Of a stretch of DNA of 64,000 bases, positions 9,029-9,058 are shown one piece after another. The stretch is from Escherichia phage LF82-1. The number at the start of each line of letters is the position of its first letter. The stretch's first letter is position 1. The notes below the pieces were generated by a model. That model saw only the letters and a program-made list of their open reading frames with translations, had not been told where the DNA came from and searched no databases. The translations under genes and the position numbers were made by a program. The stretch lies in the sequence record PV648359, one strand, 5' to 3'.

Positions 9029-9058
9029 ATAGTAACACCATCCTTGGTGTTTGTAAAC
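9029..9058 (-). promoter_or_regulatory. T4-type early promoter upstream of alc
   Basis: GTTTAC, 18 nt (contains CCAAGGATGG), TACTAT. Confidence 0.55.

Follow-up and report, generated by a model that had tools for sequence, protein, structure and literature searches.

Early-promoter spacers of Escherichia phage LF82-1 encode a covarying ANGGAN-loop hairpin that resembles CsrA-binding sites

The element considered here is a short hairpin encoded in the -35/-10 spacer of some early promoters in 64 kb of Escherichia phage LF82-1 (sequence record PV648359; hereafter the window). The closest described mechanism is the glgC-type tether of the host regulator CsrA, and the closest phage precedent is the helix of the T4 genes e, soc, 49 and I-TevI. 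[quoted passage not shown] In the ANGGAN hexaloop of RsmE the A and the GGA are contacted and the N positions are variable, while CsrB repeats read CAGGA(U/A/C)G (PMC7652899). In glgC, a hairpin that serves as a tether for CsrA is combined with a site at the Shine-Dalgarno (SD) sequence (PMC7652899). Compared with the known CsrA/RsmA sites, the phage element is found in a virulent phage and within a promoter spacer, hence in read-through RNA only.

In T4 e, soc, 49 and I-TevI, the promoter lies inside an inhibitory helix and only the transcript from the proximal promoter is translated (PMC3014915). The likeness is that long transcripts carry an element which is absent from the proximal-promoter transcript; sister early promoters of LF82-1 do so by spacer/SD pairing. 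However, the T4 cases are late promoters with direct sequestration of the SD, whereas at sites of CCAAGGATGG, the ten-nucleotide core of the element, the SD is unpaired and any occlusion would therefore require a protein bridge. Pairing of the SD or AUG with sequence upstream of the proximal start is not found at the CCAAGGATGG sites, but it is found at sister promoters (e.g. window 47439-47467). The closest published cassette concept is that of the PeSLs (promoter-early stem-loops) of T4-type phages (Arbiol 2010, Comeau 2014), which join a sigma-70-type early promoter to a stem-loop at a gene boundary, and both components are present here. In published descriptions, PeSL loops lie just upstream of the promoter, are terminators and have no conserved loop, whereas the present hairpins are internal to the spacer, have a fixed loop and are not terminator-like. 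Sites of the phage endoribonuclease RegB resemble the element in that an unpaired GGA stands at their centre, followed by a constrained base, and in that they are early and intergenic; its targets in these regions are GGAG and, rarely, GGAU (PMC3014915, PMC1702504).

In the window and its relatives, the spacer element is a strand-specific hairpin whose stem covaries while its ANGGAN-type loop is invariant; RB69 and, in part, T4 retain it at orthologous sites. The earlier note on this DNA had reported four promoters with nearly the same spacer and a GTTTAC -35 box; all four are in place on the minus strand, which is the early-sense strand, but the -35 box of the third (s3) reads GTTGTA. A fifth copy in the window (s5) had been overlooked. 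The features are the following.

9029..9058, minus strand: s1, early promoter upstream of alc; GTTTAC (9058-9053), AAACACCAAGGATGGTGT, TACTAT (9034-9029), 18-nt spacer
9034..9051, minus strand: s1 hairpin AACACC[AAGGAU]GGUGUU; 6-bp stem and ANGGAN hexaloop, occupying the spacer and the first base of the -10 box
8996..9010, minus strand: SD of alc, GAGGAG (9010-9005), and start codon ATG (8998-8996)
10213..10242, minus strand: s2, early promoter upstream of rnlA; GTTTAC (10242-10237), ATACCACAAGGATTGTGG, TACAAT (10218-10213)
10217..10235, minus strand: s2 hairpin UACCACAA[GGA]UUGUGGUA (CCACAA-GGA-UUGUGG in RNA)
48417..48447, minus strand: s3, promoter-like cassette upstream of motB; degenerate -35 GTTGTA (48447-48442), TATCCAAGGATGGATGGAG, TATAAT (48422-48417)
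48426..48441, minus strand: s3 hairpin UAUCC[AAGGAU]GGAUG
48975..49004, minus strand: s4, early promoter between dexA and a motB.1-like open reading frame; GTTTAC (49004-48999), AACCAAGGATGGTTGGAG, TATAAT (48980-48975)
48984..48999, minus strand: s4 hairpin CAACC[AAGGAU]GGUUG
516..546, minus strand: s5, early promoter; GTTTAC-ATCCAAGGACGGATTAGAG-TATAAT
527-540, minus strand: s5 hairpin AUCC[AAGGAC]GGAU

An independent promoter scanner, run over chosen ranges, called s1 (9/12 match, TG before the -10 box), s2 (10/12, TG) and s4 (11/12); s3 was not called, and s5 lay outside the scanned ranges. Whole-genome counts use Escherichia phage LF82-3 (PV660447.1; Straboviridae, Mosigvirus, RB69-like), which is 100% identical over the window; a window position equals the position in the LF82-3 record ("rec") minus 32000.

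The spacer element had been described as partly palindromic, and this remark is both correct and the key to the element, as every copy forms a hairpin, e.g. AACACC[AAGGAT]GGTGTT and CAACC[AAGGAT]GGTTG. The complementary flanks vary among copies (ACACC/GGTGT, CCACAA/TTGTGG, ATCC/GGAT, CAACC/GGTTG). Against shuffled spacers, the hairpins of s1-s4 are significantly stable (p = 0.002-0.012), with -7.3 kcal/mol for s1 (p=0.002), -6.6 for s2 (p=0.012), -4.7 for s3 (p=0.01) and -6.6 for s4 (p=0.006). The s5 hairpin, where the motif reads CCAAGGACGG, is weak (-3.0 kcal/mol, p=0.17). Among 42 curated early promoters, 9 spacer hairpins are found at p<0.05, with 2.1 expected.

Covariation was assessed on 19 distinct copies from LF82-3, RB69, T4 and the distant phage L048, and an 11-copy version of the alignment was also made. 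With a 5-bp stem, 91.6% of the cells in the 19-copy alignment are paired, as compared to 58.9% in shuffles (0/500) and 28-51% with slid partners. Both sides change in 4/5 stem pairs, and up to five pair types occur per position. Conversely, the columns C7, A8, G10, G11, A12 and G14 (C-A-n-G-G-A-n-G) are invariant, and the N positions hold A/U and U/A/C. The stems found under the same loop include ACACC, AUCC, CAACC, ACCC, UGCC, AGCC, UAUACC and CCAC. The s2 type, a GGA triloop, is 100% paired; its closing pair is A-U, U.G, C-G or U-A according to the phage, and the GGA is fixed. RNAalifold returned no structure for the MAFFT-aligned alc cassettes, where the variable loop mis-registers the 3' arm, and was replaced by an own-versus-cross duplex test. 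Rfam gave 0 matches at the gathering threshold in the window.

The hairpin is not bound to a fixed promoter context. Its register relative to the -10 box shifts by 3 nt between copies, and it is kept despite a degenerate -35 box at s3, rec 144098 and rec 123369, as well as behind MotA-box-like sequences at rec 124427, T4 53346 and the T4-like rnlA locus. Two copies, LF82-3 rec 101883 and RB69 140906, are outside any spacer. These two, located after gene 43 and upstream of nrdB, respectively, are C[AUGGAN]G hairpins just downstream of a TATAAT-like box, and they would stand at the 5' end of, or inside, every transcript of the next gene.

In the window the exact core CCAAGGATGG is found 3 times, where 0.06 are expected and 0/100 shuffles reach that number; in the whole genome there are 6 occurrences, all of them on the early-sense strand. 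With one mismatch allowed, it occurs 4 times in the window against 1.94 expected, a count that is not significant by itself. The structured motif C[ANGGAN]G with a stem of at least 4 bp is found 11 times in sense and 3 times in antisense in the LF82-3 genome; for the sense strand 1.2 are expected, and none of 200 shuffles gave more than 4. Ten of the 11 sense motifs are upstream of a start codon, and in these ten and s2 the distance from the loop GGA to the ATG is 29-49 nt. The strand bias recurs elsewhere, with 10 sense and 2 antisense motifs in RB69, 5 and 0 in T4, and 12 and 0 in other loci (367 kb). Generic GGA-loop hairpins are not enriched genome-wide (59/2,336, rank 44/64), whereas in 136 unique cassettes GGA is in the loop of 25/36 spacer hairpins against 0.6 expected. 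The GGA-loop signal is confined to spacers and gene-upstream positions.

Of the 11 LF82-3 sites, 10 have the hairpin in RB69 too; no RB69 orthologue was found for s5. Where RB69 and LF82-3 differ, the change is at an N position of the loop (U to A in s1, U to C in s3) or leaves the pairing intact (C-G to U.G in s10), and the RB69 form of s3 is CAUCC[AAGGAC]GGAUG. Genome-wide frequency and retention in close relatives, the two checks suggested in the earlier note, thus both come out on the side of the motif. RB69 and 4/7 other close relatives read CCAAGGAAGG at s1, with the loop AAGGAA on an unchanged stem. As several relatives have A or C for the T of CCAAGGATGG, conservation concerns the structured loop and not the 10-mer. 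Within Mosigvirus relatives, s2 varies outside the stem only. Further loci were added by a MotB-based locus search (3) and an ORF164 search (12).

In T4, 4/5 sense structured motifs are just upstream of genes, namely rIIA.1, nrdC.3, nrdC.4 and nrdC.7. Two of these (rIIA.1 and nrdC.4) take up the spacer between GTTTAC and TATAAT of a promoter, one (nrdC.7) comes after a MotA-box-like CCGCTTTA, and for the one at nrdC.3 a -35 box cannot be clearly recognised. The nrdC.3 stems of T4 and Mosigvirus, AGCC[AAGGAT]GGCT and CAACC[AAGGAT]GGTTG, differ under the same loop. The motif is most conserved in the nrdC.3-nrdC.7 cluster: at LF82-3 rec 122336, 123369 and 124427 the hairpin precedes each of three consecutive genes of about 320 codons (RB69 nrdC.3, nrdC.5, nrdC.6), while the T4 copies of the cluster are upstream of nrdC.3, nrdC.4 and nrdC.7. 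The T4-like orthologue of s2, at a locus where RnlA is 68% identical, reads CCACA(C/U)-GGA-(G/A)UGUGG and has the MotA-box-like TGCTTC in place of GTTTAC. This replacement, seen upstream of rnlA at loci L007-L011 and L079-L085, leaves the GGA hairpin and the -10 box in place, as though one class of promoter had been exchanged for another while the RNA element was conserved.

The resemblance to CsrA sites concerns loop, stem and spacing. The phage motif has an ANGGAN hexaloop closed by C-G, with variable N positions, and its GGA is single-stranded in the loop of a short hairpin. The tether hairpin of glgC, as read from the E. coli sequence, is GCACAC-GGA-UUGUGUG, of which the s2 hairpin CCACAA-GGA-UUGUGG is a near-copy, the two having in common GGAUUGUG and a CACA/UGUG stem. 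When glgC, s2 and the T4-like orthologues (e.g. CCACAC-GGA-GUGUGG) are aligned, CACA.GGA.TGTG is invariant. CsrB ACACC-AGGA-UGGUGU and s1 ACACC-AAGGA-UGGUGU are one loop base apart. The distance from the loop GGA to the GGA of the SD is 33-39 nt at 9/11 sites; in glgC it is 31 nt, and bridging has been published for 10-63 nt. At s1, 35 nt separate the loop GGA from the GGA of the alc SD, which the fold of the read-through RNA leaves unpaired; downstream of s4, the SD AGGA (48955-48952) is 38 nt from the loop GGA. The searchable literature gave no link between CsrA and T-even phages. The nearest reports are of a stabilisation of CsrB in T4-infected cells (PMC9697503) and of pleiotropic consequences of a csrA knock-down for infection by several phages (PMC7553319).

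The hairpins belong to a wider pattern. The earlier note had started from the premise that spacer sequence is normally unconstrained, and this premise fails in this phage group, where spacers pair with their own downstream regions. In LF82-3 the pairing of a spacer with its own downstream region averages -9.55 kcal/mol and that with the regions of other promoters -6.88 kcal/mol (0/10,000 permutations, p<1e-4); the corresponding own and cross values are -10.95 and -6.85 kcal/mol in T4 and -9.87 and -6.77 kcal/mol in RB69. Folds with z<-2 are found in half of the LF82-3 cassettes. The 3' arm is in one of two places, either just after the -10 box (e.g. TTGGTAGGACT...AGTCCTACCAA) or in the leader/SD region, as in TTCTCCTCTAGTTG...CAACTAGAGGAGAA upstream of regB and TTCTCCTCTGGTT...AACCAGAGGAGAA at window 47439-47467. 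As the 5' arm is always upstream of +1, such structures can exist in read-through transcripts only.

At the alc promoter, across 28 distinct lineages, a spacer-leader/SD helix of about 11-18 bp is kept through many compensatory changes, with a mean of -18.2 kcal/mol for own and -10.6 kcal/mol for cross partners; the own partner is the best in 19/28 (p<5e-5). The whole spacer is the reverse complement of the leader/SD at the alc loci L006-L060 and L076-L095 (rnlA-alc junction), and this helix looks like a strong, apparently undescribed conserved RNA structure. Two lineages have lost it, that of Mosigvirus, with about -4 kcal/mol, and the distant L048, and both carry the C[ANGGAN]G hairpin instead; at alc, the motif stands in for the spacer-leader helix. 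The same alternation occurs at motB, where GAGAGCC...GGCTCTC flanks the -10 box in other genera whereas the hairpin is internal here. Direct spacer/SD pairing is absent at the four sites first reported, the spacers of s1, s2 and s3 ranking 36, 39 and 41 of 42 for pairing with their own leader, and the SD is unpaired in the folds of s1, s2 and s3. Interruptions of the helices are mostly transitions (14/16, as compared to 16/38 in controls), and wobble intermediates are seen at s2, s10 and the motB loci of L064-L069.

Sister early promoters with a perfect anti-SD spacer are found at window 47439-47467 (minus strand; TTCTCCTCTGGTT/AACCAGAGGAGAA, 13 bp) and, outside the window, at LF82-3 record 133576, 136785 and 129323; a 14-bp match precedes regB. 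The SD would be occluded in read-through RNA only. Inverted repeats around the -10 box, whose 5' arm belongs to the spacer and whose 3' arm lies at about -6 to +3, are present on the minus strand at window 1603-1631, 5499-5528, 7623-7652, 17258-17287, 17682-17711, 37718-37747 and 38230-38259; examples are TGGTACAGGT...ACCTGTACCA, ACAGGGTA...TACCCTGT, TAGGACT...AGTCCTA and AGGGCT...AGTCCT (with a G.U pair). For PeSLs, the PST/T4 stem consensus has been published as 'AGNA-loop-TCNT', which resembles the AGGA...TCCT arms that flank the -10 box of sister promoters. The -10-flanking repeats may overlap the published stems, and the wider spacer-arm phenomenon may coincide in part with PeSLs.

Taken at the level of RNA or DNA, the element is very probably not a DNA operator, and there is good reason to regard it as an RNA-level element of read-through transcripts: the hairpin is upstream of the start site of its own promoter and is thus present solely in read-through transcripts from upstream genes. 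That it acts there as a CsrA tether is a reading from sequence and structure to which about an even chance can be given. In this proposal, the motif is the apex of a hairpin encoded in the sole free sequence of a very compact cassette, the -35/-10 spacer, and host CsrA would read the loop, which a 4-7 bp stem presents. Held by the hairpin, CsrA would reach across to the SD of the following cistron, as in glgC, and the read-through copy of the downstream cistron would be silenced or otherwise marked, while transcripts from the gene's own promoter, which do not contain the hairpin, would escape. The hairpin would then be the protein-mediated counterpart of the direct spacer-leader/SD pairing of most T4-like early promoters. 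A host-regulator binding site, as proposed in the earlier note, is probably right in spirit, with CsrA as the predicted regulator, although a site in RNA is favoured over an operator in promoter DNA. A more extended reading, held tentatively and at somewhat less than even chances, is that T-even phages (T4, RB69 and relatives) recruit CsrA through glgC- and SELEX-like spacer hairpins which silence or mark read-through rnlA, alc, motB and nrdC.3-nrdC.7, and that, as a general and previously unformulated rule, T4-type early-promoter spacers may encode the 5' arm of read-through-specific RNA structures.

A number of points weigh against the CsrA tether. Many of the aligned copies are paralogues or orthologues, so that the 19 copies represent about 8-10 independent stems. 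The SELEX ACA is 100% conserved, whereas most phage copies have CCA, and at 2/11 sites the SD is without GGA. The 3' arm (GGTGT / TGTGG) falls on the extended -10 region, conserved as TGTGG/TGTGT, and the stem identity with CsrB and glgC may therefore be a coincidence; a rough estimate of its probability by chance, given the comparisons made, is p about 0.01-0.1. The involvement of CsrA is suggested by a likeness in motif, structure and spacing that was noticed post hoc. Read-through across these promoters is assumed from T4 biology. Among all promoter helices, G.U outnumbers A.C mismatches by 9:5 only, by which test alone the RNA over the DNA level is unproven; the argument for sense RNA rests mainly on strand specificity, wobble intermediates and the logic of the SD.

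Other explanations can be weighed against the same observations. A purely structural intercistronic hairpin without a specific reader, which protects the upstream 3' end after processing or insulates the next ribosome-binding site, with the GGA as a relic of AGGA...TCCT arms, is unlikely but is the most serious of them. A covarying stem and sense-strand specificity require RNA structure alone, the SD is unpaired in the folded read-through RNAs, and in many sister promoters this position of the spacer holds AGGA, the 5' arm of a helix with a TCCT that follows the -10 box. However, the loop too is invariant, on some 8-10 unrelated stems; the GGA excess in spacer-hairpin loops is not matched by generic GGA-loop hairpins; and the substitutions hit exactly the N positions of the CsrA/RsmE consensus, whereas a relic would decay. 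Recent duplication, the second idea of the earlier note, can be extended to homogenised cassettes spread by PeSL-like shuffling or gene conversion with a motif devoid of function, and it is borne out in part. The cassettes of s4 and rec 122336, about 41 kb apart, are identical from the -35 through the -10 box, rec 123369 is a near-twin of s4 and rec 144098 of s1, three copies precede the tandem nrdC.3, nrdC.5 and nrdC.6, and PeSL-mediated exchange in T4-type phages is documented (PMC2839356, PMC4122927). Duplication leaves unexplained the compensatory changes on different stems under an invariant loop, the different stems on which T4 and Mosigvirus orthologues keep the motif, and its convergent appearance at the alc promoter of the distant L048; as a complete account it is rather improbable.

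The main idea of the earlier note, a phage or host DNA-binding regulator on the partly palindromic spacer, gains from the position of most copies between the -35 and -10 boxes, and the fact that the mechanism of T4 early-promoter shut-off is unknown (PMC2988021) also counts for it. It is nevertheless very unlikely, as complementarity is conserved and half-sites are not, the core is asymmetric and strand-specific, and the hairpin shifts by 3 bp relative to the -10 box, occurs with a degenerate -35 box or behind MotA-box-like sequences and is found outside spacers. A palindromic operator with symmetric half-sites at a fixed promoter position does not describe these sites. Cleavage by RegB of read-through early mRNA between cistrons, a comparably slim prospect, would account for an unpaired GGA with a constrained fourth base; the enzyme is encoded by the phage, and it cuts without S1 a small RNA in which the GGA is in the loop and the next bases are paired (PMC3014915, PMC1702504), the very geometry in which the T4-like s2 orthologue presents GGAG. 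In T4, however, only 55.2 and motB.2 are cut among 30 intergenic GGAU sites, efficient cleavage requires an A-rich tail, and GGAA and GGAC are poor substrates (PMC1702504). The T4 copies upstream of rIIA.1, nrdC.3, nrdC.4 and nrdC.7 are not among the cut GGAU sites, the phage loops are followed by GG and have no 7-nt A-rich 3' tail, and natural alleles with GGAA or GGAC occur at s1, s3, s5, s9, s10 and L079. As the reader of the hexaloop sites, RegB was rejected on its published specificity. The least probable account is a promoter-DNA element that tunes RNA polymerase binding or, as proposed for PeSLs, an intrinsic terminator of the upstream gene. It would draw on the overlap of the 3' arm with the TGTGG/TGTGT extended -10 region and on the weakly terminator-like character of s1 in a lenient scan, but register is variable, copies occur outside spacers, covariation of both arms is unexpected for an RNA polymerase contact, the stems are short and s2-s5 have no adjacent U-run. 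An intrinsic terminator has a G+C-rich stem with a U-run directly behind it; among s1-s4, the lenient terminator rule flags s1 only, where the U-run begins 7 nt past the stem, and s5, on inspection of its sequence, has a 4-bp stem without an adjacent T-run. The terminator reading was rejected.

If the CsrA tether is correct, a host post-transcriptional regulator would join the gene-expression programme of T4, the best-studied virulent phage. It would also explain the constraint on supposedly unconstrained T4-like spacers, which would double as RNA elements that separate read-through from promoter-proximal transcripts. This bears on two long-standing questions, the timing and shut-off of early-gene translation independently of transcription, and why a promoter precedes almost every small early gene. 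In practical terms, promoter logos, gene-start annotation (alc and motB are over-extended) and the synthetic re-use of T4 early promoters ignore an embedded RNA layer.

With regard to annotation, the LF82-3 record starts alc (window 8996-9061, minus strand) and the MotB-like gene (48384-48449, minus strand) at upstream ATGs that overlap the preceding stop codon. The annotated LF82-3 Alc and MotB-like proteins hence run through promoter and hairpin; according to the curated RB69 annotation and good SDs, the true starts of alc and motB are at 8998 and 48386.

Two further features of the window are of a different kind. In the short gap between nrdB and denA, at window 10661-10674 (minus strand), a C(UUCG)G tetraloop hairpin, GGGAC[UUCG]GUCCC, is followed by a T-rich tail and was flagged as terminator-like. 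The early promoters at 34827-34855 and 35148-35176 of the window (minus strand) stand 321 bp apart and are near-identical from the spacer (GCTTCAAACATGA) over TATTAT to the leader agacctatcaaa, which suggests cassette duplication or gene conversion.

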